Positions 1 to 63,669 are shown, counted from the first letter of the stretch. The stretch: 64,000 nucleotides of DNA from Bacillota bacterium (GCA_024653485.1 JANLFY010000001.1:166160-230159); one strand, 5' to 3'. A program made the numbers and translations. The notes: a model not told the origin generated them from the sequence alone.

Positions 1-813
1 GGGAATTACGTCTTGATATACGGGAAGCTGGGGTTCCCGAGGATGGGCGTGGCGGGAGCCGCGCTCTCAACCAGCGTATCGAGGGCCATTGCATTCGCGC
101 TCATCTTGCGCGCCGTAACCGGAGGCAGATTCGCTCTGCACCTCACGGGACCGACTCGACTTGACGCCCCCCTCATCAGGCGCATAGTTAGAATCGGGAT
201 TCCCGCTGCTATTGAGCAGATCATCCTTCGAGGGGGCCAGCTCGCTTACCTTCGAATTGTGGCGGGTTTCGGGACGGCCGTGGTGGCTTCACACCAAATC
301 GCCATGAACATCCTGGGCCTTTCTTTCATGCCGGGCCAGGCGTTCGCTGTGGCGGCGACGACCCTAGTGGGACAGGGCCTTGGCGCGCGTCGACCGGATC
401 TCGCGGAAAGGGGAGCGCTCGAGACCCGGCGCATCGGGATGATCGTCTCCGGTTTCATGGCGTTCGTTTTCATTCTGTTCGGCAGGTACATCGCAATGCT
501 GTACTCCAATGATCCCATAGTCGTGGCGAAGACAGCCATCGTCTTGCGCATCATTGGACTCGTGCAGCCGGCCCAGTCCACGCAATTCATCCTCGCGGGC
601 GGGCTGCGCGGGGCAGGCGACACGAAGTGGCCGCTTTACTCTACGGCGGTCGGGATCTGGGGTTTCAGGGTCGCGCTAGGATACGTGCTCGCGGTGATCT
701 CACGCATGGAGCTCGTGGGCGCGTGGATCGCAATGGCGATAGATCAGGTCGTGCGCTCCGCGATCATAACGTTTAGGTTCCGAGGAGGTAGGTGGAAGCT
801 CGCTAAGCCGTGA
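1..813 (+). CDS. MATE family efflux transporter, C-terminal portion (5' end outside window)
   Basis: Frame open from position 1. Polytopic hydrophobic protein matching the C-terminal half of a MATE/NorM-type transporter. Confidence 0.7.
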   Translation, partial: GNYVLIYGKLGFPRMGVAGAALSTSVSRAIAFALILRAVTGGRFALHLTGPTRLDAPLIRRIVRIGIPAAIEQIILRGGQLAYLRIVAGFGTAVVASHQIAMNILGLSFMPGQAFAVAATTLVGQGLGARRPDLAERGALETRRIGMIVSGFMAFVFILFGRYIAMLYSNDPIVVAKTAIVLRIIGLVQPAQSTQFILAGGLRGAGDTKWPLYSTAVGIWGFRVALGYVLAVISRMELVGAWIAMAIDQVVRSAIITFRFRGGRWKLAKP

Positions 814-8209: not shown

Positions 8210-8458
8210 CAGCGCCTGGAGTGGGAGAGCGTGGTGCGCCTCAGGGCGAACGGAAATTCCGCGTTGCGGACAGGGACGGGCCATAGTATAATTGTAATGG
8301 TTCACTAGCCCAGGTGGAGTCCGTGTGCTAGTGGCCGAGAAAGAGTGCGTAGCGGTTGTGAAACGTCAGAGTATCAGGGGGGATGCGGGTCAGGTGTTCG
8401 GACGCGGGCGTCTGTGAAAAGTGTCATTTTCACAAAGTCGAAAGGAGAGGCGGCGAAA

Positions 8459-9142
8459 GTGAGAAGAGCCAACGTGCTACTGGCAGTGGCAGTTGCTTTG
8501 GTTGCGCTCATCGGTTCAGTGGCGTTTGGAGCCGAGGCGCCGTCGTACAAGGACGGTTCATACATAGGATATGTTCCGGACGATCACGGTGACGTTGTCA
8601 TCGAGGTTGTGATCCAGTTTGGCAAGATAGTCGATGTCAATATGATAAACCCTGACAAGCCCCAGTCGTACAAGCATGAGGCTGCGAAGGCCTTGTTCCG
8701 CGAGTATCCTCTGATGGTTGTCAAGAATCAGAAGGCCGATATCGACGCTGTGAGCGGCGCCACGAGCTCTCGTAACCAATACACGAAGGCCACCCAGATG
8801 GCTCTGGATATCGCGAGTGGGAAATACAAGGGCAACGTGTTCTACGGATTGGCCAAGAACCCCGTGAACGGGCACACCCTTCTGGCCGTGACCGTGCAAG
8901 GTAAGAAAGTCACGAAGGTCGAGTTCATAACGAAGAAGACAGACTACGACACGCTCATGGCGGCAAAAGGAGCGGACTACAAATCGAAGCCTGCAAAGGA
9001 GTTCTTCGACAGCTTCCCGCAGCTGGCCGTGAAGGTGCAGACGGATCTCAAGAAGATCGACGCTGTGAGCGGCGCGACGCACAGCTACCATGAGTACCTG
9101 CATGCATACGAGAACGCCCTGAGGCAGGCGGGCCTGCTCTAG
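8459..9142 (+). CDS. Secreted protein with two FMN-binding (FMN_bind) domains, a predicted ApbE flavinylation substrate (PplA-like)
   Basis: N-terminal signal peptide (no lipobox Cys) followed by two FMN_bind-like repeats each carrying a DAVSGAT(S/H)S flavinylation-type motif. GTG start after an AAAGGAGAGG SD. Confidence 0.8.
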   Translation: MRRANVLLAVAVALVALIGSVAFGAEAPSYKDGSYIGYVPDDHGDVVIEVVIQFGKIVDVNMINPDKPQSYKHEAAKALFREYPLMVVKNQKADIDAVSGATSSRNQYTKATQMALDIASGKYKGNVFYGLAKNPVNGHTLLAVTVQGKKVTKVEFITKKTDYDTLMAAKGADYKSKPAKEFFDSFPQLAVKVQTDLKKIDAVSGATHSYHEYLHAYENALRQAGLL

Positions 9143-9369
9143 GCCACCGTCCATGCACGGCCGATGGATCCGGCCGATGGACCCGAGGAGGTCCAATAGT
9201 CCGTGCCATCGGGATGGATGCCTGCTGGAGAGCAGGGCCTGCGGGCGCCACGCGGGAAACGCGGAGCGCTCAGGGCCCGGCATCTTTGATAAACAGTGGG
9301 AGGCCCGGCGCCTCAGGGCGCCAGGCCTCTCGACGTTATCGGTGACCGATATCGGTTACGATGGACGTT

Positions 9370-10365
9370 TCACGGGATCACGAGCCGCTGACCAACCCAC
9401 AGCGTGTTGGCGTCGGTGATGCCGTTTGACTGCATGATGGCTTGCACCGAAGCGCCGTACCTGAGAGCGAGCTGGTAGAGGGTGTCCCCCGGCTCGACGA
9501 TGTGGATCGTCCGCCCGGCCGCTCCACCCTGCGATGGGTTCCCGCTCGGCTGTGAGGTCGTGGAGGCGTCCTCCGAAGCCTGCACGATGATGATCTGCCC
9601 CACCCAGAGCGCGTTCGCGTCGACGTTCGGATTGAGCTGAATGAGCCTGTATAGGGTGACACCGTTCTTCACCGAGATCGCCCACAGTGTGTCACCAGGC
9701 TGAACGTAGTAGACTCGCCCTGGCCTTCCCGATGTCACGGGCGCCGTGGGCTTCACGTAGTCTTGATTCCACCAGGCGGCAAGGGCCGGCCCGTTGGGAC
9801 CGCGGTACCTGAAAGCGATCCATGCTTGGCGGGCTATCCGGTTCGCCACGTTCGCCGAGGTGATCTCGCGCACGGAGTTGACGGTCCACATCATACCGGG
9901 TCCAGGCCCGAAGGGCTGGATGAGCTGAACGATGTACGCCCTCTCCAAGTGCTGGACGAGAACCTGGGCTTCGCCGGTGCCGGAATCCTTCTGAACATCG
10001 ACCCTGGATATCAGGGTGTACGTGTCCTGCCACGGATCGAACCCCAGAATCGCTCCCTCCTGCCGCGCTACCTGCACCGGGTCCAGCCTCCAGGTGTCTT
10101 GCCCCTGGTACACCCGCAGCTGCGCTTGGTACAAAGCCTGCCAGTTGAGGGTTACCGGACCGGTCGCTACCTCAGCGGGCGGCGAGGCGGGCGTCCCGCG
10201 GTAGTAAACCTGGCCGTCTTGACCCGCCCTGAACGAGGGATGGGCCAGTGAATCGAGTCCTGATCGCTCCTCCCCAGGCCCCGCGGCCCACACCACCGCT
10301 TGGAGCGTTAACGCGGCGGCGAGGACGATCGCTACGACTATCGAGCGTCGCATGGTGCGATGCAA
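9370..10365 (-). CDS. Secreted protein with two C-terminal LysM peptidoglycan-binding domains
   Basis: Signal peptide. Two LysM repeats (YVQPGDTLWAIS...WVGQIIIV and HIVEPGDTLYQLA...WVGQRLVIP). Confidence 0.75.
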   Translation of the reverse strand: MHRTMRRSIVVAIVLAAALTLQAVVWAAGPGEERSGLDSLAHPSFRAGQDGQVYYRGTPASPPAEVATGPVTLNWQALYQAQLRVYQGQDTWRLDPVQVARQEGAILGFDPWQDTYTLISRVDVQKDSGTGEAQVLVQHLERAYIVQLIQPFGPGPGMMWTVNSVREITSANVANRIARQAWIAFRYRGPNGPALAAWWNQDYVKPTAPVTSGRPGRVYYVQPGDTLWAISVKNGVTLYRLIQLNPNVDANALWVGQIIIVQASEDASTTSQPSGNPSQGGAAGRTIHIVEPGDTLYQLALRYGASVQAIMQSNGITDANTLWVGQRLVIP

Positions 10366-10670
10366 AGGAACTCTCCCCTTTCACACAGAATGTAGGATGG
10401 GAAACAATGCTATTGCGAGTTTCCCGACCCTCTTGGCCATGATATCTGGATGGAGCGGGCTTGTCATCCTTCAGATCCTTCCAGGCGAAGGCACACCTGC
10501 CACACGCGGCGTGCTTCTGGTGGAGGGGCACAGTCGCCGCGCTGCTATTGGTCCGGTTGGCCCAGGGTTCGTGTGAAATCTAATGGGGCGGGAGACCTGG
10601 TTAGGCGGTGCGCACGACGAGAGGAGTGTGGTATTATGATGTAGCGGGGGACGAGTCAGGGGGGAGGATC

Positions 10671-11396
10671 ATGCTAACGCTAAAGGACATTCAAGGCAAT
10701 CCCAACTTCCGCCTTCTCATAGGCAAGGCCAACGACTACCTGTCGCTTCTCGGTTACACCGAACACGGGCTTCGTCACGTGACCTATGTGTCCACGACGA
10801 CGGCGTACATTCTCAGAAGCCTTGGGCACGACGATAGGACCGTCGAGCTCGGGGCGATCTCCGGTTACTTGCATGATATCGGGAATATGCACAATCGCAA
10901 GTACCATGGTCCCACCGGCGCGAACATAGTCTTCACAGAGCTCAGAATGCTCGGAATGCCCCTGGAGGAGATCTGCACCATCACCACTGCCATCGCCAAT
11001 CACGAGGAGGAGATAGGCATCCCCGTGAGTCCAGTGTCCGCTGCATTGATCATCGCGGACAAGAGCGACGCGCACCGGACCCGGGTGAGGATGAGGCGGG
11101 CGCATGACATCCATGACAGAGTGAACCTTGCCATAACCGATTCATCCTTGGTCGTGGATGACGTGCGTAAGACCATCACGCTGGACATATCCTTCGACAC
11201 GACGGAGTGCCAGATAATGGACTATTTCGAGATCTACCTAACCCGAATGGAGATGTGCAAGCAGGCGGCGGCGCTCCTCGGCTGCAGGTTCAGGCTCGTC
11301 ATAAACGGGCTCGAGCTTCTCGGACAACTGCAGCGGGACGAAGCACCTCGAGCTCGGGCGGCCTCGGGCATGGCGCCATCGCGCACGGGCGCGTGA
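10671..11396 (+). CDS. HD domain phosphohydrolase
   Basis: H...HD...D motif arrangement (GLRHVTYV, YLHDIGN, ADKSDA). ATG 10671 follows a GGGGGAGGA SD. Confidence 0.7.
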   Translation: MLTLKDIQGNPNFRLLIGKANDYLSLLGYTEHGLRHVTYVSTTTAYILRSLGHDDRTVELGAISGYLHDIGNMHNRKYHGPTGANIVFTELRMLGMPLEEICTITTAIANHEEEIGIPVSPVSAALIIADKSDAHRTRVRMRRAHDIHDRVNLAITDSSLVVDDVRKTITLDISFDTTECQIMDYFEIYLTRMEMCKQAAALLGCRFRLVINGLELLGQLQRDEAPRARAASGMAPSRTGA

Positions 11397-11515
11397 GGAT
11401 CACGGCGACTGACGGCACGTCAAGGCCTCGCAGGGCTGCTGTAGGAGGTTCAACCCGGAGGTTCAACTGGGTCTTGCTTGGCGCGGCGGTCTCCATACGC
11501 TGTCCCGAGCAGTGT

Positions 11516-12526
11516 TCAACTGGTGCGGTGCACCACGCTTGCTAGGATATCCGCGAGGATCTCTTTTCCCGTGCCGTCAGGGAGGAGCGCGAGGCAGCGA
11601 TTCGCGCGGTCCGCGTATCTCTCCGCGACCTGCAACGCTCGGCAGAGGGCGCCGGATTCCCTCACCGCGGCGATGACTCGCTTGCGAGCTTGGCAGCTCA
11701 TGCTGTCGCGCCCATCCCGGCCGGTTGCGTTGAGTTCGGTGAGAAGAGCCCTCAACTCGGGTCCCCATTTCCTGCTTCCCAGCGCATATATCACGGGCAG
11801 AGTGTACACGCCGCACGCGAGATCGTGCGCAGCGGGCTTTCCCGTGGCAGCCTCGTCTTGCGAAAAGTCAAGGACATCGTCTGCTATCTGGAACGCGATG
11901 CCAAGGTGAAGGCCAAATCGGCGAAGCGTGTCCGTAGTATCTCTCGGAGCTCCCGCCACAAGGGCGCCGGCATAGCAACTCAAGGCGAAGAGCATGGCTG
12001 TCTTTTGGCGGATCCTCCGCAGATACTGACCGAAGGACACGGTGACATCGCCTCGGGCCTCGTATTGCTCGATCTCACCCTCGCAGACCTGCTGAACCGC
12101 GTTGGCCACAGATGAGAGAATCCCCGTGTCGGCATACCGGGACAGCATCTGAAAGGCGCGCGTGAAAAGGTAGTCACCGGTGAAGACGGCCACATTCGCC
12201 CCGTGTCGCGCCTGAACGGTCTCGATCCCCCTTCGGGTATCGGCGTCATCCACGATGTCGTCGTGGACGAGCGTGGCCATGTGGACGACTTCGACGGCGG
12301 ACGCGACCACCACGAGTTTCTCGGGGTCAGCATGACCGAACATGCCCGATGTCAGCACGAGGGCCGGACGGACGCGCTTTCCTCCCGCTCGCAGGAGGGA
12401 CATCACTGCGTCCGAGATGAGCTTGTGTCCTGTGGAGAGCTGTTCCTCGAGGCAGGCTTGCACTCTCTTGAGGCCGTCGGCGAGCTCGGGGTGATGCGTC
12501 CACCTGGATGACGAAGCTTTCTCCAT
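11516..12526 (-). CDS. Polyprenyl diphosphate synthase (trans-IPPS; HepT/DmkB-like)
   Basis: First and second Asp-rich motifs (LVHDDIVDDADTRRG and IADDVLDF). Start at MEKASS, preceded by a GGAGGAG SD. Confidence 0.85.
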   Translation of the reverse strand: MEKASSSRWTHHPELADGLKRVQACLEEQLSTGHKLISDAVMSLLRAGGKRVRPALVLTSGMFGHADPEKLVVVASAVEVVHMATLVHDDIVDDADTRRGIETVQARHGANVAVFTGDYLFTRAFQMLSRYADTGILSSVANAVQQVCEGEIEQYEARGDVTVSFGQYLRRIRQKTAMLFALSCYAGALVAGAPRDTTDTLRRFGLHLGIAFQIADDVLDFSQDEAATGKPAAHDLACGVYTLPVIYALGSRKWGPELRALLTELNATGRDGRDSMSCQARKRVIAAVRESGALCRALQVAERYADRANRCLALLPDGTGKEILADILASVVHRTS

Positions 12527-12557
12527 GAGACTCCTCCATCCGCCGTCGTGTATGTTG

Positions 12558-13118
12558 TCAAAGCGTCCTCGCGACTTGCTTGCCCCGCGTTTCCCTCTGC
12601 TGGCGGGCGGAGGGAAACGCGACAGCCTTCGCGAGGAAGCTGAGGACGAACCCGGCTGCGATTCCAACGAAATAACCTGTGGCGACTCCGGCCACCAGGA
12701 GCACGGGGAGATAGCCGTAAATGCCCATGGTGCCCACGACCATTCCCGCGACGAAGAGCTGGCCCACGTTGTGGGATATCGCCCCCAGGACGCTCACTCC
12801 TACCAGGCCGAAGACGCTTCCCAGTCGTCTGTACGCGAGCGACATCACGGCCGTCGCGAGCGCTCCTCCGACCACGCTAAAGGCGAAGCTGGTCAGAGCT
12901 CCGGAGAGGAGCGACGCAAGGAAGGTGCGCAGGACGACCACGACGAACGCGTCAACAGGGCCGGAAAGCACGATCGCCACGAGCGTGACTATGTTCGCGA
13001 TTCCCAACTTTGCCCCCGGAATCATGAAAGGCACGGGTATCAGGCTCTCGACTGCATGCAGTACAAGAGCGAGTGCGGTGTACATCGATATGTGCGTCAA
13101 TCTCTGTATTCTCGTCAT
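12558..13118 (-). CDS. Gx transporter family membrane protein (heptaprenyl diphosphate synthase component I domain, PF07456-like)
   Basis: 186-aa polytopic membrane protein. Composition and topology match Hpre_diP_synt_I/Gx-transporter proteins that co-occur with ApbE and NusG-II proteins. Confidence 0.65.
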   Translation of the reverse strand: MTRIQRLTHISMYTALALVLHAVESLIPVPFMIPGAKLGIANIVTLVAIVLSGPVDAFVVVVLRTFLASLLSGALTSFAFSVVGGALATAVMSLAYRRLGSVFGLVGVSVLGAISHNVGQLFVAGMVVGTMGIYGYLPVLLVAGVATGYFVGIAAGFVLSFLAKAVAFPSARQQRETRGKQVARTL

Positions 13119-13205
13119 TCCGCATGAGATCTGCGCGGGTGCCGCGGCAACCGGGTGACGCGCAGAAAACCCTTGCCCTCCCTTTGGCGTCTTCCCTCGT
13201 CATCG

Positions 13206-13631
13206 TCAATACGCGACTCCGTCGAGCGCGTGTTCCGGTCGTGGCGATCGTGTCCCACCCTGAATCTTCACCACGACTCTGTTGGGAAGGCACACGATGG
13301 TCTCGCCCGGCTGATCGATCCAGCCTGTCCTGACGCATACTCTATCAGGGCAATCCGAATCGAGGACCCTGGCGCGCCCATCCTCCGTGATCTCCACGGT
13401 GACGCTGTGCCCCCTGCTCGCAGGGACGTCCACCGTCATAGTGTGCGTGACCTGTGAGAGAGGGATCGTCCAGAAAGGACGGTTGTCTAGCTCTATAGAC
13501 ACCTCTCTCGCGCTCACGGCATCCCGCTCGCGGCTTCGGCTGACGCTTTGGCACGCGAAAATCGCTGCGGCGCAGCTCACGACGACGAGAGCGAGTATGA
13601 CATCAGCTTTCTTGAACGTCTTCACCATCAT
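13206..13631 (-). CDS. NusG domain II-containing protein (DUF1312-like), membrane-anchored
   Basis: N-terminal TM anchor, then a beta-rich domain resembling the NusG_II family that typically sits next to ApbE and Gx-transporter genes. Confidence 0.6.
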   Translation of the reverse strand: MMVKTFKKADVILALVVVSCAAAIFACQSVSRSRERDAVSAREVSIELDNRPFWTIPLSQVTHTMTVDVPASRGHSVTVEITEDGRARVLDSDCPDRVCVRTGWIDQPGETIVCLPNRVVVKIQGGTRSPRPEHALDGVAY

Positions 13632-14724
13632 GATACTTGACAGTCCACCCGTCACTGATTTCTATGGCGCCCTTGAGTCCCGGGGAAACGAGCACCTCTC
13701 GGACCTCGGTCACTATCACCGCCTCTATACCGGGGAGGCGCTCCACGAGACCCATCCCATCCGACGGTCCCAAGAGGAACACCGCGGTGGACAGCGCGTC
13801 CGCGTCCACCGCGCGGCGGGCTACGATGGTTGCGCTCACCACCCCCGTCTCGGCGGGGTACCCCGTGTCAGGGTCGATTATGTGATGGTACCGTCTTCCG
13901 TGCTGTTCGAAGAAGCGTTCGTACGTGCCCGACGATACTACGGCCGTATCGCGCACGGACAACACCGCGAAAGTCGCGCCGCGCTCCTTCCAGGGATCCT
14001 GTATCCCCACGCGCCACGGCGACCCGTCTGGCCTCGAGCCAACCACCAAGATGTTTCCACCCAGGTCGATGAAAGCGCTCTCCACTCCGCGCTCCGTCAG
14101 AACCTCCGCGGCTTCGTCGGCGGCATAACCTTTCGCTATCGCACCCAGGTCGAGGGCCATCCCGGCCTTCGGAAGACGCACCGTGCCCCCAGACTCGTCC
14201 ACCTCCACCTCGCCATGATGGACCAGCTGCTTCGCGACAGCGATATCTTCAGGAGAAGGCACTTTCGCGTGCTTCGTACCTATGCCCCACAACTGGACGA
14301 GCGGGCCGATGGCCACGTCGAACTTGCCGTTGCTTAGATCGGCGTATTCCTTGGCCCTTTTCACCACATACAGTGTATCGCCCGCCACCGAGCTTGGCAA
14401 GCCTCCGGCGTTTCGGTTCAATTCTGCGACATCGCTAGATGCGATGTTGGCGCTCATCAGAGCCTCTATCTCCTCAATGCGGTGGAAGGCTTCGTCTACG
14501 GCCTTGCCGGCACCCTCGCCGCTAGCGTACGCACGCACTTGGACGAGCGTCCCGAGGGCGAAGCCGGTTCTAACTGACGCGACCGGCTTGTTTGCGGAAA
14601 GCTGGCACCCCGCAACCGTGAAGGCCGACACCAGGGCGACTGCGTATAGCCAATCGAGTGAGAGGTCCTGACGACTGCCACGCAAGTCGCGCCTCTTCAC
14701 GCGAGTCTCTCCATTCGCAGACAT
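13603..14724 (-). CDS. apbE: FAD:protein FMN transferase ApbE, lipoprotein
   Basis: ApbE family sequence. Lipobox VAGC after the signal peptide. Start at MSANGE to exclude the Arg/Pro-rich upstream ORF portion. Confidence 0.85.
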   Translation of the reverse strand: MSANGETRVKRRDLRGSRQDLSLDWLYAVALVSAFTVAGCQLSANKPVASVRTGFALGTLVQVRAYASGEGAGKAVDEAFHRIEEIEALMSANIASSDVAELNRNAGGLPSSVAGDTLYVVKRAKEYADLSNGKFDVAIGPLVQLWGIGTKHAKVPSPEDIAVAKQLVHHGEVEVDESGGTVRLPKAGMALDLGAIAKGYAADEAAEVLTERGVESAFIDLGGNILVVGSRPDGSPWRVGIQDPWKERGATFAVLSVRDTAVVSSGTYERFFEQHGRRYHHIIDPDTGYPAETGVVSATIVARRAVDADALSTAVFLLGPSDGMGLVERLPGIEAVIVTEVREVLVSPGLKGAIEISDGWTVKYHDGEDVQES

Positions 14725-15197
14725 CCTCGGGGAACACCCCCAGGGCGCGCCCTCGCGGCTCCTCGTGGGCACGTCTATGGGCGCGCCTGCAGTCGTGCTT
14801 GCTCTTGCGTCTCAATTCATCAGCCGCCCAGTGCGTCGTCCGCAAGGCTTCGTGGACTCACCTGTACCGGTGTACCGCCACTCGCTCACATCATGCTGCA
14901 CAGCCCGCCCTGCGGCTTCCGGGGTCACCGCCCGATCACTACCCGGCCTGTCCGGTCGGAGCGCGTCGGCAACCCCCACGTGGCCGCACTGACTCCGCCA
15001 GGCTCGCACCGAGCTCGTGGCCGGTCTGTTGCGGCCGGCTTTCTGAACGCTGTGATTGCACTATCGTGCCACCCGTGATTGTACCATTTGTGCGGCGAAA
15101 CTGTCTATGGTATAGTTGAAAGAGCCGATGGTAATCAGCGTTATCATGGAGGATTCCCCTGGCACTCGGCGAAATACACAACAGTCGGGGCGGCGTG

Positions 15198-15213
15198 TGT
15201 GATTGGCGTCACA
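15198..15213. promoter_or_regulatory. Perfect TGTGA-N6-TCACA palindrome (Rex/CRP-FNR-type operator) in the apbE / ndh divergent promoter region
   Basis: Sequence TGTGATTGGCGTCACA lies 118 nt upstream of the NDH-2 start codon and also faces the divergent apbE operon. Confidence 0.35.
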
Positions 15214-15331
15214 ATCACAAGGAGGTGGCCGCGGCAGACCGCGGCTGACCCGACCGCTCGTCCTCGTCTCTCAGACTACTGGACGAGACTACCAGACATG
15301 ATCGGACAAGAGCGCGTGGGAGGAATGGTGG

Positions 15332-17083
15332 ATGGCTCACAAGAAGAGAGTGGTCATTCTCGGAGGGGGTTACGGGGGGATCCATGCAGCGCAGACCCTG
15401 GACAGGCTGCTTGGACGCGACGAGGCCGAGATCACGCTCATCGACAAGAACGATCATCACACCCTCCTGACCGAGCTCCATGAGGTGGCGGGGGCTCGAG
15501 TTAACGAGGACAGCGTGCGGATCCCCTTTTCGGACATCTTCCGCAGGAGCAAGGTACGCGTGGTTAAGGACACGGTCACCGGCATCGATCTCAATAAGAA
15601 AGTGCTGAGGTCAGAGACGGCAGAATACCCGTATGACTATCTTGTTCTAGCGTGCGGAAGCGAACCGGAGTTCTATGGAATCCCTGGAATGGCCGAGAAC
15701 GCGTTCACCCTTTGGTCGCTAGAAGACGCCCGGAAGATAAAGGCGCAAGTGCGGGCCATGTTCGAACTGGCGGTCGCGGAACGAGATCCGATCAAGCGGC
15801 AGGAGCTACTCACTTTCGTGGTGGGTGGCGGTGGCTTTACTGGAGTAGAGATGGCTGGCGAGCTTGCGGAATGGGTACCGGAGCTGTGCCGCGAGTTCGG
15901 CTTGTCGCCGTTTTCGGTGACGGTGTACGTGATCGAGGCCCTCCCTCGCATACTCCCTACCCTTGCCGACAACCTTGCGGCAAGGGCAGCTCGCGCCATG
16001 CGGGCGAAAGGGATCACCGTGTTGACCGACTCGCCCATAGTGGAGGTCGGGCGTGACGAGATTACGCTCAAGTCAGGCACGAAGATACGGACTCGCACCG
16101 TGATTTGGACGGGTGGAGTCCGAACGACCAGCTTTCTGAGGGACAAAGGTTTCGACTGCAAGAAGCGTGGTCGCCTGACGGTCAACGAGTATCTCCAGGT
16201 GGTCGGGCATGACGATGTGTACGCAGTCGGCGACAACTGCTTCTTCGCAGATGAGAATGGAGAGCTTCCTGCGCTCGTTGAGTCGGCGCTTCAGGGAGGG
16301 GCATGCGCTGCCAGGAACATAGCAGCTGATATCAAAGGTACGCCCAAACGCAGGTTCAGGCCCCGTCTCCATGGGGTGATGGTATCCGTCGGCAGCCACT
16401 ACTCGGTGGCCGACCTCATGGGGATGTCCCTGTGGAGTTATCCGGCCACCGCCATGAAGCACCTCGTGAACCTTCATTACCAGTGGGGCGTCGGAGGCAT
16501 GAGGGTCATACTCAAGTACCTCAGACACGAGATGATAAACGCGAGGGGAGTGCTTTCAGAGCTCATGAAACACGCTAACGTCAAGGTCAGCCTTGCTTGG
16601 CTCGTGATTCTCAGGGTGTTCCTTGGCTATGAGTGGCTCGTATCTGGACTAGGCAAGATACGCGATGGTTTCCTTGTCTCCGGCGACAAGCTCGTGTCTG
16701 GCTCGTCTTTGATGCCCATGGGGCCGGGGACGCCCGAGTGGTACAGGTGGCTCATGGACACCTTCGTCTTCCCGCATGCGCTCTTCTTCCAGTGGGTTGT
16801 GACCCTGACAGAACTGGCGCTGGGGCTCGCGTTGATCTTCGGTCTCTTCACCAGCATTGCGGCGCTTGGGTCGATATTCATGAACGTCAACTTCGCTCTT
16901 GCTGGCGCCGGAGGGAACATCTGGTTCGTAATGGTCTCCATCGCCATGCTCGGTGGAGCCGGGCGCGCTTTCGGGTTGGACTACTATGTGATGCCCATCT
17001 TGGGAGAGGTCATAAGAGGGATGCTTCCCAAGGGGCGGCTCGCGTCCGGCTCGCGGACTCCTCAGGCTGGCGCGGCGAGGTAG
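15332..17083 (+). CDS. ndh: Type II NADH dehydrogenase (NDH-2) with C-terminal DoxX-like multi-helix membrane extension (EET-type Ndh2-like)
   Basis: N-terminus MAHKKRVVILGGGYGG (FAD/NAD Rossmann). Second dinucleotide-binding motif present. The last ~170 aa form 3-4 hydrophobic helices. GGGAGGAA SD. Confidence 0.85.
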   Translation: MAHKKRVVILGGGYGGIHAAQTLDRLLGRDEAEITLIDKNDHHTLLTELHEVAGARVNEDSVRIPFSDIFRRSKVRVVKDTVTGIDLNKKVLRSETAEYPYDYLVLACGSEPEFYGIPGMAENAFTLWSLEDARKIKAQVRAMFELAVAERDPIKRQELLTFVVGGGGFTGVEMAGELAEWVPELCREFGLSPFSVTVYVIEALPRILPTLADNLAARAARAMRAKGITVLTDSPIVEVGRDEITLKSGTKIRTRTVIWTGGVRTTSFLRDKGFDCKKRGRLTVNEYLQVVGHDDVYAVGDNCFFADENGELPALVESALQGGACAARNIAADIKGTPKRRFRPRLHGVMVSVGSHYSVADLMGMSLWSYPATAMKHLVNLHYQWGVGGMRVILKYLRHEMINARGVLSELMKHANVKVSLAWLVILRVFLGYEWLVSGLGKIRDGFLVSGDKLVSGSSLMPMGPGTPEWYRWLMDTFVFPHALFFQWVVTLTELALGLALIFGLFTSIAALGSIFMNVNFALAGAGGNIWFVMVSIAMLGGAGRAFGLDYYVMPILGEVIRGMLPKGRLASGSRTPQAGAAR

Positions 17084-17920: not shown

Positions 17921-18706
17921 GTGGTTTCCGGTGAGAAGGTTAGGAACGCGAGAAAGGCAAGGGGGCTCACGCTCGTCGAGCTTGCTTCGAGGGCAAGACT
18001 CTCATATTCGTACTTGAGCGAGATAGAACGCGGTTCCAAGACTCCATCCTCTGATGCACTGGCGCGGCTCGCCGACGCGCTCAACCTCAACAGGGCGGAT
18101 CTCGTGGAGGCATCCGAGGAAGACGGCGATCAAGGCATCGGGCCTGGTGACAGACTGCGGGTTGCCCGGGAGGACCGCGGCATGACTCTTCGTGAGGTGG
18201 CGTCCGCGGCGGGCATATCAAGCACTTACTTGAGCGAAATAGAGCGTGGCAACGTGCAACCAGCTGTGTCCGTCCTGAAGAGGCTGGCCCGCGTGCTGCA
18301 CATCCCTCTCTCTGTGCTCATGTCGCCAGCGGAACGCAAGGGATTCCTGGGCGAGAAGCTCAAGAGGCTCAGAGCCATACTGGGTATGACCCAGGCGGAG
18401 GTGGCTGCCAAAGCCGGCGTTTCGTCCGCCCTCGTCGGCCAAATCGAGCTAGGGCGGGTTTCGCCGTCACTCAGAACCGTCAACAAGATAGCCTCGGCAT
18501 TGGGTGTGTCACCTTGTTACCTCGTCTTGGATAGCGAGGGCATCGACGAGATCGTCCCGGCGATGACCAAAGACCTTCGCGACCTACTGCAGGACCCAAA
18601 CGTGCAGATGCTGTTGAGCGCGGTGTGTACTCTGAATCAGAAGGAGATGAGGTTCGTCTTCGAGGTGATTGCGCTCCTCAAGCGGTCGGGAATCAGCTCG
18701 CCTTGA
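17921..18706 (+). CDS. XRE-family transcriptional regulator with three tandem HTH_XRE domains
   Basis: Three repeats of the ~55-aa Cro/C1-type HTH (…LSYSYLSEIERGSKTPS…, …ISSTYLSEIERGNVQPA…, …SSALVGQIELGRVSPS…). GTG start after an AAGGGGGGG SD. Confidence 0.7.
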   Translation: MVSGEKVRNARKARGLTLVELASRARLSYSYLSEIERGSKTPSSDALARLADALNLNRADLVEASEEDGDQGIGPGDRLRVAREDRGMTLREVASAAGISSTYLSEIERGNVQPAVSVLKRLARVLHIPLSVLMSPAERKGFLGEKLKRLRAILGMTQAEVAAKAGVSSALVGQIELGRVSPSLRTVNKIASALGVSPCYLVLDSEGIDEIVPAMTKDLRDLLQDPNVQMLLSAVCTLNQKEMRFVFEVIALLKRSGISSP

Positions 18707-32452: not shown

Positions 32453-32601
32453 GCTCGCGGGCGCCGCCAGACGCGCTTGGCGTGACGCACGCTTGCGGAA
32501 ACTAGCATCCTCGTGCCAGCTCGGGAGCGGCTCAGAGCCGGCTTCAAGCTGTCAGCGGTAGAGCTTGGTGCCGGCATCGCCGGGCGAGGGAGAGATCTGC
32601 T

Positions 32602-33000
32602 TTGAGGCTCACGCGCGATGTGATAAGGGGCGATAGCAGACGCAAGCTGCTTGACATCAGCGGGGAGGACGTCGCTGCGTGTTACCAGTGCGGCAAGTGC
32701 TCCGCCGGCTGCGCGATGGGGGCGATGATGGATCTCCTCCCTCACCAGGTGATTAGACTCGTGCAGCTCGGGCAGATTGATGACGCGCTCGCGTCCCGAA
32801 CGATTTGGCTGTGTGCCTCGTGCCTAGCATGTAGTGCGCGGTGTCCGAGGGGCGTGAGCCTGCCGCACGTCATGGAAGCGCTCAGGGTGACGCTCCTGCG
32901 TTCGGGTGGGCGGCATCTCGACCTCTCGCGCCTCCCGTCGGATGTCTTCGAGAACGCTCCGGAGCAAGTTTTCGTGGCCGGTCTCCGGAAGTACACGTGA
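32602..33000 (+). CDS. hdrC: Heterodisulfide reductase subunit C-like (HdrC), two 4Fe-4S motifs
   Basis: CYQCGKCSAGC and CASCLACSARCP cluster motifs in a ~130-aa protein directly upstream of hdrB. TTG start is uncertain. GTG 32620 is the alternative. Confidence 0.7.
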   Translation: MRLTRDVIRGDSRRKLLDISGEDVAACYQCGKCSAGCAMGAMMDLLPHQVIRLVQLGQIDDALASRTIWLCASCLACSARCPRGVSLPHVMEALRVTLLRSGGRHLDLSRLPSDVFENAPEQVFVAGLRKYT

Positions 33001-33271
33001 CCTGCGTCGCGGCGGCGGGGAGCCTGAGTTGAGCCAGTCGGGCGGTGTTTCCGCCTGGGCTTGGCCTCGGATGCCGCGCAGGCTCGAGCCGAGACCGCCG
33101 ATCGCGGTGAGACGTGGCTTGCCACAGCCGCGCTTGCCACAGCCGCGAATGTGGCTGCACTATGGGCTTTCCTGGCCGGACGCGGGGGCGGGGAGAAAGG
33201 GAGGAGGGTCGCCGCAAGGACGCAGCCCGACGGCGCGACCCCGGGGCGGGCACGACTTGCGGCCAGGCGAG

Positions 33272-34153
33272 ATGGGCTACGTGTATTTTCCAGGATGCAC
33301 GCTGCGGGTAAGGGCCAAAGGCTTCGAGTCGTCGGCTCTCGCTTCAGCGCGTGCGCTCGGCGTTCATCTCGAAGAGCTGCCGAATTGGCAGTGCTGCGGG
33401 GCGACATTTCCGCTGCAGGTGGATAACGCGTTTCCGCTCGTGTCCCCAGCTCGGACCCTTGCGTCCGCCAGAAAGATGGGCGGACGACTCGTGACCCTGT
33501 GCTCCGCCTGTTACAATGTGCTCAAGCGAACGAACCACGTGATGCGTACGGACGCCGACCGCCGCTTCAAGGTGAACGCTTTCATAGAGGAGGATTACGG
33601 TGGAGATGTCGAGGTCGCGCATCTGCTAGAGGTGCTCCGTGATGACGTCGGGTTCGACGAGATTGCGAAGCGCGCGAAGGTGCCCCTCGGCGGCCTCGCG
33701 GCCGCGCCCTACTACGGCTGCCTGCTGTTGAGACCCGCCGACGAGCTCGAATTCGACGACCCGGAGTCGCCCCACATCCTTGAGGATTTCCTCGCCGCTC
33801 TGGGATGCAAGGTCGTTGACCATCCGTACAAGATAGAGTGTTGCGGTAGCTACGTAGCGCTTGAGCCCGGACAGGCCGCTTTGGAGCCGAGCAGGCTTGT
33901 GGTGGAGTCGGCGAAGACAAGGGGCGCCCAGGTCATCGTGACGAGCTGCCCCCTGTGCCAGTACAATCTCGAGGTCTCGCAGGGAAGACCTCACGGCCTG
34001 GCCGGAGCAGGGGTCCCCGTGATCTACTTCACTCAGCTTCTAGCCGTCGCCCTCGGTCTTTCAGAGGATGTCTTGGGCTTTGAGGACCAGATGATCTCTC
34101 CAGGGCCGCTCCTGCGGTCCGTCGGGGCCATGGGAAGTGAGGCTACGGCATGA
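33272..34153 (+). CDS. hdrB: Heterodisulfide reductase subunit B-like (HdrB), two CCG domains
   Basis: MGYVYFPGC...QCCG and ...CPLCQYN CCG-domain signatures. Start at ATG 33272. The upstream part of the ORF is Arg/Pro-rich. Confidence 0.85.
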   Translation: MGYVYFPGCTLRVRAKGFESSALASARALGVHLEELPNWQCCGATFPLQVDNAFPLVSPARTLASARKMGGRLVTLCSACYNVLKRTNHVMRTDADRRFKVNAFIEEDYGGDVEVAHLLEVLRDDVGFDEIAKRAKVPLGGLAAAPYYGCLLLRPADELEFDDPESPHILEDFLAALGCKVVDHPYKIECCGSYVALEPGQAALEPSRLVVESAKTRGAQVIVTSCPLCQYNLEVSQGRPHGLAGAGVPVIYFTQLLAVALGLSEDVLGFEDQMISPGPLLRSVGAMGSEATA

Positions 34154-36096
34154 GGACGGGTGTGTTCGTGTGCTGGTGCGGTCTGAACATCGGCGGAGTC
34201 GTGGACGTGCCGGAGGTCGTCCGGGTAATCTCGAGTTATCCGGGGGTTGCGTGCGCCCTTGACTATCGATACATGTGCTCCGATCCGGGCCAACAGCTCA
34301 TCAAGGACACCATCAGGAGGGAGCGCCTGGACAGCGTGGTCGTTGCGGCGTGTTCGCCGGCTATGCACGAGGCCACGTTCCAGTCGGTGGCGGCAAGCGC
34401 CGGGGTGAATCCGTACAGGTGCGAGATCGCGAACATCCGCGAGCAATGCAGCTGGCCTCATCAAGATGAACCCGGCAAGGCCACGAGCAAGGCCTTGGAG
34501 CTCGTCCGAGCGGCTGTGGAAAAGGCTCGAGGCGACGAAGAGCTCTCGGCTCTATCCGTTCCTCTGACGAGGCGCGCCCTCGTCATAGGGGCGGGGATCG
34601 CCGGAATGCAGGCCGCTCTCGACATCGCAGAGGCGGGCCACGAGGTCGTGCTGGTGGAACGGCAGGCGCACATCGGAGGCCACATGGCTCAGCTTTCGGA
34701 GACGTTCCCGACCCTCGATTGCTCGCAGTGTATACTCACGCCGAAGACATCAGAGGTGGGAAGACACCCTCGGATCAAACTCCTCACGAACAGCGACATC
34801 GAATCGGTCTCAGGGTACGTGGGGAATTTCTCCGTGAAGATCCGCAGGAAGGCGACTTATGTGAACTGGGATGTCTGTACCGGCTGCGGCCTGTGCACGG
34901 AGAAGTGCCCATCCAAGAAGCCGTCCGTCTTCGAGAGAGGTCTTTCCCAGGAGCCCGCCATTGCCATCGCCTTTCCGCAGGCGGTGCCCCACAAGCCTGT
35001 GATCAGCGCCGAAGCGTGCAGGCATTTCACGAAGGGCAAGTGCGGAGTGTGCGAGAGGGCCTGCCCGGCCGGGGCAATCGACTTCGGGCAAAGGGACTCG
35101 CTTGTCGAAGAACAGGTCGGCGCGATCGTGGTTGCTACGGGATATGACCTCCATCCAAAGGCGAAGGTGGGGGAGTACGGTTACGGTGTGTACCCTGATG
35201 TCATCGACGGGCTCGAGTTCGAGCGACTCAACTCCGCGTCCGGTCCCACGCAGGGCGAGATAAGGCGTCCGTCCGACGGCAAGGTTCCTAAAGAAGTGGT
35301 GTTCATTCAGTGCGTGGGATCCCGGGATCAAGAGAACGGGTACCCCTATTGTTCGAAGATATGCTGCATGTACACGGCCAAGCATGCTCGGCTATACAAG
35401 CACAAAGTGCCTGACGGCCAGCCTTACGTGTTCTACATGGACGTGCGCGCAGGCGGTAAGGGTTACGAGGAGTTCGTGCAGCAAGCCATGGACGAGGGCG
35501 TGCTGTACCTGAGAGGCCGGGTGGCGCGGGTGTTCCAGGATGGCGACGGCCTTGCGGTGCTCGGGGTGGACACTCTCTCCGGCAAGAAGGTGGAGGTCCG
35601 CGCGGATATGGTGGTTCTCGCTACGGCCATCGTGCCCTCGAGTGGGGCGAAAGACCTCGCTCAGCTCCTCAAGACCGCCGTGGACCAATTCGGGTTCTTG
35701 TCCGAGGCTCACCCCAAGCTGCGCCCGGTGGAGAGCCTGACGCGCGGCATCTACATCGCGGGGTGCGCCCAGGCGCCGAAGGACATTCCCGACACGGTGA
35801 CTCAAGCGGGTTCCGCGGCAGCGAAGGTGCTCGCGCTCTTCTCCGCAGAGAGGCTCTCCCATTCGCCGACTGTGGCCGCCGTAGATGAGGAACTGTGCAG
35901 CGGGTGCGGGATCTGTGTGAAAGCATGCGCGTACGAGGCCCGAACGCTTGACCCGACACGGCGCGTGGCGACGGTGAATGACGTGCTGTGCGAGGGGTGT
36001 GGCGCCTGCGTCGTGGCGTGCCCGAATGGTGCCACGAGACAGAAGAACATGACGAGATCCCAGGTGTTGTCGATGATCGATGCAGTGATGGGCTAG
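34150..36096 (+). CDS. hdrA: Heterodisulfide reductase subunit A-like (HdrA): FAD domain, inserted ferredoxin domain, C-terminal 2x[4Fe-4S]
   Basis: N-terminus MRTGVFVCWCG, FAD-binding LVIGAGIAGMQAA, CTGCGLC/CGVCERACP and CSGCGICVKAC/CEGCGACVVACP clusters. ATGA overlap with hdrB. Confidence 0.9.
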   Translation: MRTGVFVCWCGLNIGGVVDVPEVVRVISSYPGVACALDYRYMCSDPGQQLIKDTIRRERLDSVVVAACSPAMHEATFQSVAASAGVNPYRCEIANIREQCSWPHQDEPGKATSKALELVRAAVEKARGDEELSALSVPLTRRALVIGAGIAGMQAALDIAEAGHEVVLVERQAHIGGHMAQLSETFPTLDCSQCILTPKTSEVGRHPRIKLLTNSDIESVSGYVGNFSVKIRRKATYVNWDVCTGCGLCTEKCPSKKPSVFERGLSQEPAIAIAFPQAVPHKPVISAEACRHFTKGKCGVCERACPAGAIDFGQRDSLVEEQVGAIVVATGYDLHPKAKVGEYGYGVYPDVIDGLEFERLNSASGPTQGEIRRPSDGKVPKEVVFIQCVGSRDQENGYPYCSKICCMYTAKHARLYKHKVPDGQPYVFYMDVRAGGKGYEEFVQQAMDEGVLYLRGRVARVFQDGDGLAVLGVDTLSGKKVEVRADMVVLATAIVPSSGAKDLAQLLKTAVDQFGFLSEAHPKLRPVESLTRGIYIAGCAQAPKDIPDTVTQAGSAAAKVLALFSAERLSHSPTVAAVDEELCSGCGICVKACAYEARTLDPTRRVATVNDVLCEGCGACVVACPNGATRQKNMTRSQVLSMIDAVMG

Positions 36097-36216
36097 ACCG
36101 CGCACACGAGGAGGCGGAAAGCTGCTCGGAGCGGTCAGAGCGGTCGGATTTGTCCTGCGGGGCTGCCGTCGCGGCTTGCGCGGCAATGGCTATGACGACA
36201 CAGCTTGGGATGAGGT

Positions 36217-39200
36217 GTGATTTTAGGGATGGTGCCAGCTGAAGCGCGTTCGAGAGGGTCCGTGCTGGTAGTCGGAGGCGGCGTGGCTGGGATGCACGCC
36301 TCGCTCATCCTGGCGGAGGCAGGCGTGCATGTGTACCTGGTGGACTCGTCCGCCACGGTGGGCGGGCTCTGGAACCTCCTCGACAAGACATTCCCGACCC
36401 ATAGCTGCGGGATCTGCCACATGTCCACGAAGAACCCGGCCTACTGTCCGGTGATCGAGGTCGCGAGGCATCCCCGTGTCACGCTCATGGTCAACAGCCT
36501 AGTGGAAGAGGTCTTGGGTGACATAGGGGACTTCCGAGTGCGGGTCAGCACTCGCCCGGAATTCGTGAAGAGCGCCCTCTGCGACGGATGCGGCGAGTGC
36601 GAGAGAGCCTGTCCAGTGGAGGTCAGGCTGCCGCGTCACCTCGGACTCGATGACCGCAAGGCGATTGTTCGACCGGGCGGTCGCGCCGTCCTCGGAGGGT
36701 ACGCTGTGGACGAGGAGGCTTGCACAAGGTGTGGGGAGTGCGCCAGGGCGTGTCCCAGGGGCGCCATAAACCTTGCTGCCGAGGGAACCGAGACCACTCT
36801 TGCGGTTGGAGCCATCATCGTGTGTTCCGGAGCTGCCATGTGTGATCCCAGCGTACGTCCGGAATACATGTACGGTTTGTCGAAGAATGTCATGACTGGC
36901 TTGGAGTTCGAGAGGGTCTCGGCAGCCGCTCTCCTGAGCAATGAGGGTCTCCTCAGACCGGGCGATGGGGCGAGGCCCGACAGGATCGCCTTCATCCAGT
37001 GCGTGGGCTCGCGTGACAGGTCGAGGGCGAGCCCGTACTGCTCTTCGGTTTGTTGCATGTACGCCGTCAAAGAGGCGATCATTGCGAAGACGCTGGTGCC
37101 CGAGGCGTCGGTGAAGGTTTTCTATACGGATGTGAGGGCTCTTGGCAAGGGGTACGAGGAGTACTACGTCCGCGCAAAGGCCCTCGGCGTCGAGTTTGAG
37201 AACTGCAGGGTGTCTAGCGTCGAGGACAACGAAGGCGCTCTCGAGGTGCGCGCGGAGTCCGGCGGTGTGGTAAGGCGCGATAGCTTTGACCTCGTGGTGC
37301 TTTCGAACGGCTTTGTACCCGCAGGGAGCCTCATCAGCATCGGAGCCGTGCTCGGGCTCGAGCGGGACGAGTTCGGGTTCGTGAGGCCGCTATCTCAAGG
37401 GCGCTCACGGGTGACGACGTCCCGACCAGGGGTGTACGTTTGCGGAGGGGCGGCCGGGCCCCAGGACATCCCCACGTCAGTCCTGTGGTCGGGAGCGTGC
37501 GCGCTCCAGGCGCTTAGGGCGGTTGGACCCGAGGCTGACTGGGATGAGTGGCCCGCGCTCCGACTCGACGCGGGAGAGCAGACAGATCGACCGGGCGGGG
37601 GGAGGGCCGCGGACCTGGGTTCAGAGGCCACGGTGCAGAACCAGGTTTCGACTGCGACACAGGTGGCGCCGGCGTCCGCGGCTGGTGAGACGCGAGTCGG
37701 GGTGTTCGTTTGCGAGTGCGAGGCGTCCTTGGGGAGCGTAGACCCCGCGCGCCTCGTCCATGTGTTGTCGGGAGAGCCGATGCCTGACGTGGTCGTGGTG
37801 AAAGGGATTCCTCCCGTGTGCAAGCGAGAAGGCGTGGAAGCTCTGGCGAGGGAAGCTGCGTCCCACCGGGTCAACCGCGTGGTAGTAGCCGCATGCTCGC
37901 CTAGGCGGGTCCAGGACCTCATAGGTGGCAGGCTCTCGCAAGCCGGCGTGGAGCACGGGATGGTCGAGGTAGCGAACATCCGCGAGCAGTGCGGGTGGGT
38001 GCACGACCACCCTGGCAAGGCTGAGCGAAAGGCGCGCGATCTCGTGGCGATGGCAGTTGCCAGCGTTCGGATGGCAACTGTGCTCGTGGAACGAGCCAGA
38101 CCGGTGCCGGCGGGGGCGGTGGTGATCGGCGGAGGGCCGGCCGGGATGCACGCTGCTGCTTGCCTTGCCGACCTGGGCCACCACGTTCACCTTGTGGAGA
38201 AGGACGAGATTCTCGGGGGCAGGGCTCGGGCCTTAGCCCGGACGCTTGACGGGACAGACGTTCGAGAGCTCCTCGAGAAACTCGAGGAGCGTGTCCGCTC
38301 CGACAACCGCATCACCGTTCACACGTCATCGCGGGTCGCGTCGGTTCACAGGCGAGATGGAGGGTTCAGTGTGTCCATCGTCCGCAACCGCGACTCGGGT
38401 GGTGCGGAGCCTGAAAGGCTTGCAGACGACCTTCGCTGCACCGGTGAAGGCAGCGGCTTTCGAGGCGGTCGAGGCGGTTGCGCGGAAGAGGGCGGAGCGG
38501 CGATCGCGTGCGGCGCGGTGGTCGTGGCCACAGGGGGGCGCGAGGCCCCTGGCCCTGCGAGCCTTCCGCCTCCCGACGGCGCGCGCGTCTTGACCCAAAC
38601 GGAGCTCGAGGCCCGTCTCTGGCCTTCGTTGGATATCCCGGGCGCGATCCGGAGCGTTGTGATGATACAATGCGCGGGATCTCGCGATGAAACGAGGCCG
38701 TACTGCAGCCAGGTTTGTTGCTCTCAGGCCATCAAGAACGCTATCAGGCTCAAGGAGGAGCGCCCGGATGTCGAGGTTTACGTGTTGCATCGCGATGTCC
38801 GGGTGCCGGGTGCGTGGGAGGCTTTCTATGAACGGGCGCGCGAGATGGGAGTGGTGTTCGTAAGGCACCATGACGACGCCCCGCCCAGGGTGGTCAATGA
38901 TGGCGACGAGCCGGGCGGCAGCGCCCTCGCCGTCGAAGTCCTCGACGACATCCTGGGAGAGACCATCATCATTCCTGCGGACCTCGTAGTCCTGTCAACG
39001 GGGGCGGTGGGCGCGGCCGACCGCGATCTCGCGATGGCCCTCGGGGTGCCGGTCGATGGCCACGGTTTCCTGACCGAGGCCAACGTCAAGGTCCAACCCG
39101 TGGATACATGCGTGCCAGGGGTGTACGTCTGCGGACTTGCGAGGGCACCCGGGTTCTTGAGCGATGCGCTCGTCTCAGCGGAGGCCGCAGCGGCGCGCGC

Positions 39201-39471: not shown

Positions 39472-39511
39472 GCGCCGTCGATGTAGCGAGGACGAAGGGA
39501 GGGGAGCTGCG

Positions 39512-39943: not shown

Positions 39944-39978
39944 CGCGTCCCTGCCGCGTGCAGCAGCGAGGTGTAGCC

Positions 39979-41061: not shown

Positions 41062-41087
41062 TTCGGGGGCGGCACCGGCAGGAGGTG

Positions 41088-41774: not shown

Positions 41775-41779
41775 GAGGG

Positions 41780-60154: not shown

Positions 60155-60537
60155 TCGACTGCTATCAGGACCTCTTTCGACTCCGTTCAACAATTTCCTC
60201 TTCCACTGCGTGAATCCTCCCCTGGAAGAGCACATAGCAGGCAGAGCCTCGCCGCGTCGGGCGGCGAGCCGCCGCGGAGACGAGGTCGCAGGTGCCCGCA
60301 TCGCGCACGCATGCGTTGCCGGGATCCGGATGGACGGGCTGGGGGCATGGACAGGCTGGAGGCGGGACACCGCGACTGACCGCTGGACCGGTCGGAATGT
60401 CCCGGCACGGGACTCCAGACCCGCCTACTCGGGTATCCCCCGGTTGCGCCGGGAACCACACGCGCAAGGCGACCACATAGGCGCCTCCGCTCTACGCTGT
60501 GTGCGTCTTCACTTCCCCTAGACGTGCCGGTAATATC

Positions 60538-63591: not shown

Positions 63592-63669
<78 letters not shown>

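Follow-up and report, generated by a model that had tools for sequence, protein, structure and literature searches.

Does a group of genes between positions 8459 and 17083 of a stretch of Bacillota DNA equip its owner to move electrons from NADH to flavins outside the cytoplasmic membrane? The stretch, called the window throughout, is 64,000 nt long (GCA_024653485.1, JANLFY010000001.1:166160-230159), and an initial annotation made from the sequence alone had likened these genes to the flavin-based extracellular electron transfer (FLEET) locus of Listeria. We consider it likely that the locus is a Clostridia-type version of that Listeria module. This view draws on the homology of the encoded proteins to their Listeria counterparts, on the recurrence of the same neighbours in related Bacillota, and on a candidate operator that a detached flavoprotein gene has in common with the NADH dehydrogenase gene.

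Gene content and comparison with the Listeria locus

Families were assigned by a Pfam scan with curated cut-offs. Together with a listing of open reading frames (ORFs), this found every gene that had been described, at the position proposed for it, with each product surpassing the cut-off of its named family, FMN_bind, ApbE, NusG_II and Hpre_diP_synt_I included (Table 1). Independent gene calls by NCBI (contig JARYMN010000001.1, GCA_029907145.1) and JGI (metagenome 3300038743) agree on the genes and on their Pfam families. Three elements of the initial annotation were borne out in this way: a secreted protein with two FMN_bind domains (by translation and Pfam), a minus-strand operon of an ApbE lipoprotein, a NusG_II protein, an Hpre_diP_synt_I protein and a polyprenyl synthetase (by coordinates, lipobox and Pfam), and a divergent NADH dehydrogenase with a C-terminal DoxX-like extension (by its DoxX score).

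The same annotation had mapped these genes onto the Listeria locus. Our reference was the locus of L. monocytogenes NCTC7974 (NZ_LR134400.1, 310398-330212; L086 in our numbering of loci), which was met by tblastn of a plasmid collection and compared with the window by pairwise blastp. It is annotated with fmnA, a gap at the dmkA position, fmnB and pplA on one strand, and ndh2, eetA, eetB and dmkB on the other. Six of these eight gene types are also present in the window. The mapping stands for the five whose products are 37-39% identical (Ndh2, FmnB, EetA, EetB and DmkB), while for the sixth, PplA, it does not extend beyond an architecture of two FMN_bind domains with SGAT motifs. The Listeria proteins have matching Pfam domains: NusG_II in EetA, PF07456 in EetB, a CbiQ-type energy-coupling factor T component (ECF-T) in FmnA, and in Ndh2 a borderline DoxX match of 23.9 bits. 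In both loci ndh2 is divergent from the flavinylation genes. The two differ in that eetA, eetB and dmkB lie inside the apbE operon of the window, whereas in Listeria they lie behind ndh2, and in that dmkA (UbiA) and fmnA (ECF-T) are not in the window's locus. The PplA-like gene of the window also stands ~7 kb off on the other strand, and its product has no lipobox and shorter FMN_bind domains than Listeria PplA.

The Listeria record is a 594-kb entry named 'plasmid 3'; because ribosomal protein genes are found on it along with the FLEET locus, it is a piece of chromosome. Its dmkA region (5343-6401 of L086) holds two ORFs (153 and 173 amino acids, aa) in different frames with no gene-table entry, which may be the result of a frameshift or a pseudogene.

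The product of the divergent gene is 583 aa long. Residues 1-398 make up a type II NADH:quinone oxidoreductase (NDH-2) and residues ~405-565 a DoxX-like membrane domain, with the DoxX (PF07681) gathering threshold exceeded over residues 424-520, weaker DoxD and MauE matches in the same region, and at least 3 hydrophobic segments. Residues 4-398 match the Caldalkalibacillus NDH-2 4NWZ (E 8e-82), followed by B. subtilis YjlD (E 9e-69) and the NDH-2-like protein SAOUHSC_00878 (5NA1, E 2.5e-63), and neither of its two dinucleotide-binding GxGxxG motifs, GGGYGG at residues 11-16 and GGGGFTG at 165-171, varies across the homologue alignment. An AlphaFold2 model with a mean predicted local distance difference test score of 82.7 gives ~409-564 as a series of helices, at lower confidence. 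By tblastn the top Listeria match is the Ndh2 of the FLEET locus, which covers 95% of the query including the membrane extension; by blastp the two are 38.4% identical over 606 columns (window 4-555 of 583, Listeria 3-607 of 628, E 3e-132).

The ApbE protein at the head of the operon carries the lipobox TVAGC and has Listeria FmnB (7ESA, E 1.9e-75) as its best solved-structure match, ahead of the next-ranked ApbE/Ftp-type 4IFU; with the Listeria reference it has 39.2% identity over 309 aa (E 9e-87). In the EetA homologue an N-terminal membrane anchor precedes the NusG_II domain (37.5% identity over 80 aa to Listeria EetA, L086:11057-11491, E 3e-19). Three of its cysteines (C94, C99 and C114 in the window's numbering) are invariant in 38 of 38 sequences, in the pattern CxDxxCV...G...CxP, which hints at a metal site or a disulfide. 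The PF07456 protein aligns with EetB at 37.4% identity over 179 aa (E 1e-36), and it has five hydrophobic segments and an additional weak ECF_trnsprt match in Pfam.

At the end of the operon, the polyprenyl synthase aligns with Listeria DmkB over 333 aa at 36.6% identity (E 5e-73), and among the three synthase matches in a complete Listeria chromosome record it is the DmkB gene that scores best. Both proteins carry the motif HMATL(V/I)HDD. On the NCBIfam HepT equivalog model the window's synthase scores 286 bits, below the cut-off of 456. Small residues stand four and five positions ahead of its first Asp-rich motif, and such residues mark long-chain prenyl products.

The FMN_bind protein has a hydrophobic signal sequence with no cysteine and no lipobox, in line with the earlier statement that it is not a lipoprotein, and a DAVSGAT(S/H)S motif in each of two compact domains. 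Its gene starts with GTG, 8 nt after the ribosome-binding site AAAGGAGAGG. To Listeria PplA there is a weak blastp match (29.7% over 91 aa, E 2.5e-4). The protein is thus described here as PplA-like in architecture and not as a PplA equivalog, and its flavinylation, by covalent attachment of flavin mononucleotide (FMN), is predicted from the motifs. That its gene is parted from the operon by LysM and HD genes, as had been noted, is confirmed by the gene positions.

Table 1. Genes and candidate regulatory elements of the FLEET-type locus, in coordinates of the window.
Feature	Position	Strand	Evidence
Candidate operator 1, TGTGAAAAGTGTCATTTTCACA	8413-8434	+	Exact TGTGA-N12-TCACA, 25 nt 5' of the FMN_bind start codon
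FMN_bind gene, PplA-like extracytosolic flavoprotein (predicted)	8459-9142	+	Pfam FMN_bind, two stretches, E 4.9e-16
LysM gene	9370-10365	-	Pfam; secreted product with two C-terminal LysM domains
HD/HDIG gene	10608-11396	+	Pfam HD
DmkB-like long-chain polyprenyl diphosphate synthase, last operon gene	11516-12526	-	Pfam polyprenyl_synt, E 2.7e-67
EetB homologue, membrane protein	12558-13118	-	Pfam Hpre_diP_synt_I (PF07456), E 3.2e-44
EetA homologue	13206-13631	-	Pfam NusG_II, E 3.6e-28
FmnB/ApbE-type FAD:protein FMN transferase, lipoprotein, first operon gene	13603-14724	-	Pfam ApbE, E 2.9e-93, 312.7 bits
Candidate operator 2, TGTGATTGGCGTCACAATCACA	15198-15219	+	apbE-ndh2 divergent spacer, 113 nt 5' of the ndh2 start
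Ndh2-type NADH dehydrogenase	15332-17083	+	Pfam Pyr_redox_2, E 1.1e-45; C-terminal DoxX, 33.6 bits (cut-off 23.6)
Triple HTH_3 (XRE-family) protein	17921-18706	+	Pfam HTH_3, three stretches, E 3.7e-44

Comparison with other characterised systems

The FLEET loci of Enterococcus faecalis (with Ndh3) and Lactiplantibacillus plantarum have gene families in common with the window, and the Enterococcus NDH-2 genes are ~40% identical to that of the window. Genetic work in these two genera has found Ndh2/3, EetA/B and, depending on the acceptor, PplA to be needed for the reduction of iron or an anode (PMC9864754, PMC9888254). Both species differ from the window's source as low-GC lactic acid bacteria, and L. 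plantarum relies on exogenous quinone precursors. In the Rnf, Nqr, NapH-like, MsrQ-like, PepSY-like and DsbD systems, ApbE is needed to link FMN covalently to an FMN_bind domain that lies beyond the cytoplasmic membrane (PMC8238504); in the window, by contrast, the membrane step would be taken by NDH-2 and a quinone. An operational definition of loci for extracellular electron transfer (EET) calls for an NADH dehydrogenase (NDH-2, K03885 type) with a transmembrane helix, at most five genes from an ApbE or FMN_bind protein bearing a signal peptide or lipobox (PMC8238504). The window's locus falls under this definition, since an NDH-2 with membrane segments adjoins a divergent ApbE with a lipobox; the NDH-2 type was judged by the match to 4NWZ.

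Background on EetB bears on what may be expected beside these genes. The Listeria protein, which has been equated with PF07456, is an ECF-S-type protein that binds flavin adenine dinucleotide (FAD); it is the substrate-binding subunit of an FAD exporter feeding FmnB, and not an electron carrier (PMC9973259). Its gene is often co-located with apbE, eetA and EET genes, adjoining eetA in 3,328 genomes and apbE in 2,169, and an ECF-T gene in just 291 of 4,214 (PMC9973259).

Conservation of the locus in related Bacillota

A scan of one genome per species returned 463 NDH-2/DoxX relatives, and the best 80 loci were analysed. Partners near ndh2 were counted with iterated hidden Markov models (HMMs) seeded with the window and Listeria proteins, and 47 of the 80 loci have at least 6 kb on both sides (full-flank loci). 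Clostridia commonly encode NDH-2/DoxX homologues that are full-length and 45-52% identical. The polyprenyl synthase (IPS) was the most frequent partner, near ndh2 in 63 of the 80 loci and in 43 of the 47 full-flank ones. ApbE followed (54/80; 37/47), then EetB (43/80; 29/47), the FMN_bind protein (42/80; 28/47) and NusG_II (36/80; 24/47). UbiA-like proteins were much rarer (11/80; 5/47), and an ECF-T was found in none (0/80; 0/47). Because identical neighbours recur around NDH-2/DoxX in most of the 80 loci, the clustering of these genes is not due to chance.

Most often the genes run IPS-EetB-NusG_II-ApbE-FMN_bind on a single strand that points away from ndh2. The closest architectural relatives of the window's locus, with NDH-2/DoxX proteins 45-52% identical over their full length, are uncharacterised loci in Clostridia such as those of Caldicoprobacter oshimai, Thermotalea metallivorans and Fervidicola ferrireducens (L060, L054 and L024). 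The first of these, like many other loci, has the whole run divergent from ndh2; that of T. metallivorans is without EetB and NusG_II, and that of F. ferrireducens has IPS, FMN_bind and UbiA downstream of ndh2. Three of the carriers can be linked to metal reduction by species name only: F. ferrireducens, T. metallivorans and Orenia metallireducens.

It is in its FMN_bind gene that the window departs from this pattern. The FMN_bind protein of most lineages combines a lipobox with one or two DxxSGAT motifs, and among the relatives in Clostridia it is usually a lipoprotein encoded directly between apbE and ndh2. A compact form without a lipobox is found in the window's clade (L006-L011, with NDH-2 85-90% identical) and its sister clade (L012, L013). 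The shift of the gene by ~7 kb to the other strand, with LysM and HD genes between, is seen in the window's clade only, and the LysM and HD genes likewise hold this position only there; nothing was found that ties these two genes to the system. When every ORF of 40 aa or more in the 608-bp spacer between apbE and ndh2, the place of the gene in relatives, was searched with an HMM, no FMN_bind pseudogene remnant came to light. The HD gene was considered as a counterpart of the phosphodiesterase gene that follows dmkB in Listeria and was ruled out, there being no similarity between them.

Several side observations were made on these relatives. The FMN_bind proteins of the sister clade (L012:8942-9631 and L013:8960-9676, both on the minus strand) read D-V-V-T-K-A-T in both domains and not D-x-x-S-G-A-T, with Gly replaced by Lys. 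Eight loci from Thermosediminibacter, Fervidicola, Thermovorax and Thermovenabulum (L018, L024, L026, L030, L032, L039, L055 and L057) carry ndh2 and then in turn, over ~+1.7 to +4.8 kb from it, IPS, a lipoprotein PplA-like gene and a UbiA-like gene, and represent the Clostridial set with a DmkA-type gene; apbE, eetA and eetB were not detected within the fetched flanks of this group. On one contig labelled 'Betaproteobacteria bacterium' (L011, JBLNCC010000015.1) the whole locus is 85% identical to that of the window, and an 83%-identical RNase PH bears the same label. This is probably a mis-binned or mislabelled metagenome-assembled genome.

A candidate operator common to the FMN_bind gene and ndh2

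The detached FMN_bind gene and ndh2 are each preceded by a 22-nt element of the form TGTGA-N12-TCACA. It has exactly two matches in the window, against a chance expectation of ~0.06 exact matches per window (an estimate from ten fixed bases), and a position weight matrix scan adds none. In 1.4 Mb of related loci there are 13 exact matches, all 5' of ndh2 or an FMN_bind gene. The five clade loci that include the FMN_bind gene, L006-L010, all retain the two sites, with the FMN_bind site at an equal position, and the ndh2-side site is conserved in L006-L011, L066 and L076. The centre of the element reads G-Y-(G/A)-TCA, and its orientation is always that of the gene. A simple CRP-type site, TGTGA-N6-TCACA, was also considered; its single exact match 5' of ndh2 coincides with the inner portion of the 22-nt element.

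The element is probably a transcription-factor operator. Its distribution argues well for co-regulation of the relocated FMN_bind gene and ndh2. The detached gene can be assigned to the set on two grounds, namely that its homologues sit between apbE and ndh2 elsewhere and that it has this operator in common with ndh2.

A triple-HTH_3 gene is conserved downstream of ndh2 in L007-L011 and adjoins the locus in L028, and its product is, speculatively, a candidate regulator acting at the operator. Outside the clade the gene and the operator do not correlate: L066 and L076 have the operator with no HTH gene detected, and L028 has the HTH gene without the operator. The minus-strand operon has a promoter-like site at 15107-15078. 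As to known RNA control, such as riboswitches, an Rfam scan of the whole window gave just one tRNA (63592-63666).

Genomic context and source lineage

The source, a metagenome-assembled genome labelled 'Firmicutes bacterium', had been called a 'high-GC Gram-positive' genome. The first part of this holds, with a GC content of about 61-62% (0.59-0.66 across the window), but a search with RNase PH places the source in an unclassified Bacillota (Firmicutes) lineage, not among actinobacteria. The close RNase PH matches are labelled only Firmicutes or Bacillota bacterium, and named taxa are at 62-65% identity. An N-acetylmuramoyl-L-alanine amidase with three AMIN domains is encoded at 58256-60370 on the minus strand. 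AMIN domains are typical of periplasmic proteins in double-membraned bacteria. Should the amidase be a sign of a double membrane, the anchorless FMN_bind protein would be periplasmic and not released.

Downstream of the locus come ABC and TRAP transporters and then an Hdr/Flx-like cluster on the plus strand (~32600-43420). Besides a CCG protein, it encodes two large Fe-S flavoproteins that resemble HdrA (34150-36096 and 36292-39471), along with FlpD/MvhD (39512-39943). Next comes a fumarate-reductase-like pair of cytosolic type (41088-43420), and beyond it lie the genes for 2-oxoacid:ferredoxin oxidoreductase and for succinyl-CoA synthetase. Genes of this kind are suggestive of an anaerobe. 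The window's one FAD_binding_2 protein (41807-43420) was examined as a possible extracytosolic reductase and rejected: it lacks both a signal sequence and a flavinylation motif, and it adjoins cytosolic Fe-S partners. Rnf, Nqr (RnfB, NqrF), NapH-like, MsrQ-like, PepSY and DsbD proteins are absent from the Pfam assignments of the genes called between -3.9 kb and +58 kb and from the last genes of the window.

Proposed mechanism and alternative explanations

Taking the homology, domain content, synteny, motifs and common operator together, we infer the following biochemical route, in which the quinone and the terminal acceptor are likewise putative. NDH-2 would oxidise cytosolic NADH and reduce a membrane naphthoquinone by way of its fused DoxX-like domain, and the tail of that quinone would be made by the co-encoded DmkB-like long-chain polyprenyl diphosphate synthase. 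FAD would be exported by EetB with its partner EetA and a common ECF T/A module encoded elsewhere. With the exported FAD as donor, the ApbE/FmnB lipoprotein is predicted to link FMN covalently to the DAVSGAT threonine in each of the two FMN_bind domains. The flavinylated FMN_bind protein may then accept electrons from the quinol pool and pass them to acceptors outside the cytoplasmic membrane.

Several observations weigh against this FLEET assignment. A UbiA-type DmkA, which the initial annotation had already reported missing, was found neither in the window nor in 3.9 kb upstream, either with an HMM derived from UbiA-like genes in the related loci or by tblastn with Listeria DmkA fragments. 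A CbiQ-type ECF-T (FmnA) is likewise missing from the window and the 3.9 kb upstream, as it is from the 80 related loci; given how seldom eetB adjoins an ECF-T gene in the genomes surveyed (PMC9973259), this absence is the norm. If they exist at all, the quinone and the exporter core must therefore both be supplied from elsewhere. The FMN_bind protein is without a lipid anchor and only weakly similar to PplA, and its 38 bits on the NCBIfam PplA model are below the cut-off of 325. Just 14 of the 47 full-flank loci have all five main partners, and since composition varies in this way between lineages, the NDH-2/IPS pair may serve respiration more widely as well.

An alternative proposal is that the genes are chance neighbours: a housekeeping NDH-2 beside a quinone-tail synthase, a general ApbE-EetA-EetB cassette that serves, for example, an Rnf complex elsewhere, and an FMN_bind protein connected to neither. 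The NDH-2/IPS pair is indeed the most constant part of the related loci, some lineages have no adjacent ApbE, EetAB or FMN_bind, and Clostridial eetB most often co-locates with Rnf (PMC9973259). This proposal nevertheless seems improbable to us when set against the frequency with which ApbE and FMN_bind stand beside NDH-2, against an operator that is conserved and, in the window, confined to the FMN_bind gene and ndh2, and against the identity of the NDH-2 itself, a FLEET-type paralogue whose membrane extension is included in its match to Listeria Ndh2. There are also no Rnf genes in the window. To a reversed flow, in which electrons from extracellular or periplasmic donors would enter the quinone pool by way of the flavoprotein, we give very little credence. 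The direction of flavinylated systems is reversible in principle (PMC8238504) and many low-potential Fe-S and Hdr-like enzymes are encoded downstream, but characterised NDH-2 enzymes and the systems of Listeria, Enterococcus and Lactiplantibacillus run from NADH outward (PMC9888254, PMC9864754), and the locus gives no sign of an energy input for the reduction of NAD+.

A different question is where the electrons would go. The identical machinery could feed dedicated extracytosolic flavinylated reductases encoded elsewhere, such as fumarate- or urocanate-reductase-like enzymes, in place of minerals, electrodes or free flavins, an option for which the initial annotation had also allowed. The targets of FmnB in Listeria include an extracellular fumarate reductase, and flavinylated enzymes resembling it are widespread (PMC8238504); an FMN_bind protein without an anchor would moreover suit the part of a soluble carrier to partner enzymes. 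Against this, no secreted reductase is encoded in the window, and metal reduction features in the names of some species that carry the locus, a circumstantial point. We regard such a role as possible, if on the whole unlikely. Within the FLEET assignment, it can further be imagined that the PplA homologue lost its anchor, shrank and left the operon, coming under a lineage-specific operator common with ndh2 that may be read by the triple-HTH protein, and that it now acts as a released or periplasmic flavinylated carrier. This rewired form of the module is doubtful; if true, it would amount to a protein-borne flavin shuttle with dedicated transcriptional control.

Significance

The system considered here is a known one that had already been predicted to be widespread in Firmicutes, and nothing in the locus overturns current understanding. 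The traits peculiar to the lineage, namely an anchorless, relocated and operator-linked PplA homologue and the lack of dmkA at the locus, are modest variations. For loci of this family, the comparison identifies the membrane extension of FLEET-type Ndh2 as a DoxX-family domain, Listeria included, and the pair of NDH-2/DoxX and polyprenyl synthase as the most constant core, while the PplA-type protein varies in how it is anchored and in where its gene lies. What is new is the addition of a deep-branching, uncultured and GC-rich Bacillota lineage from engineered and thermal habitats to the predicted electron exporters that use a flavin and not a cytochrome route, which is of relevance to iron cycling and to bioelectrochemistry in digesters and composts.

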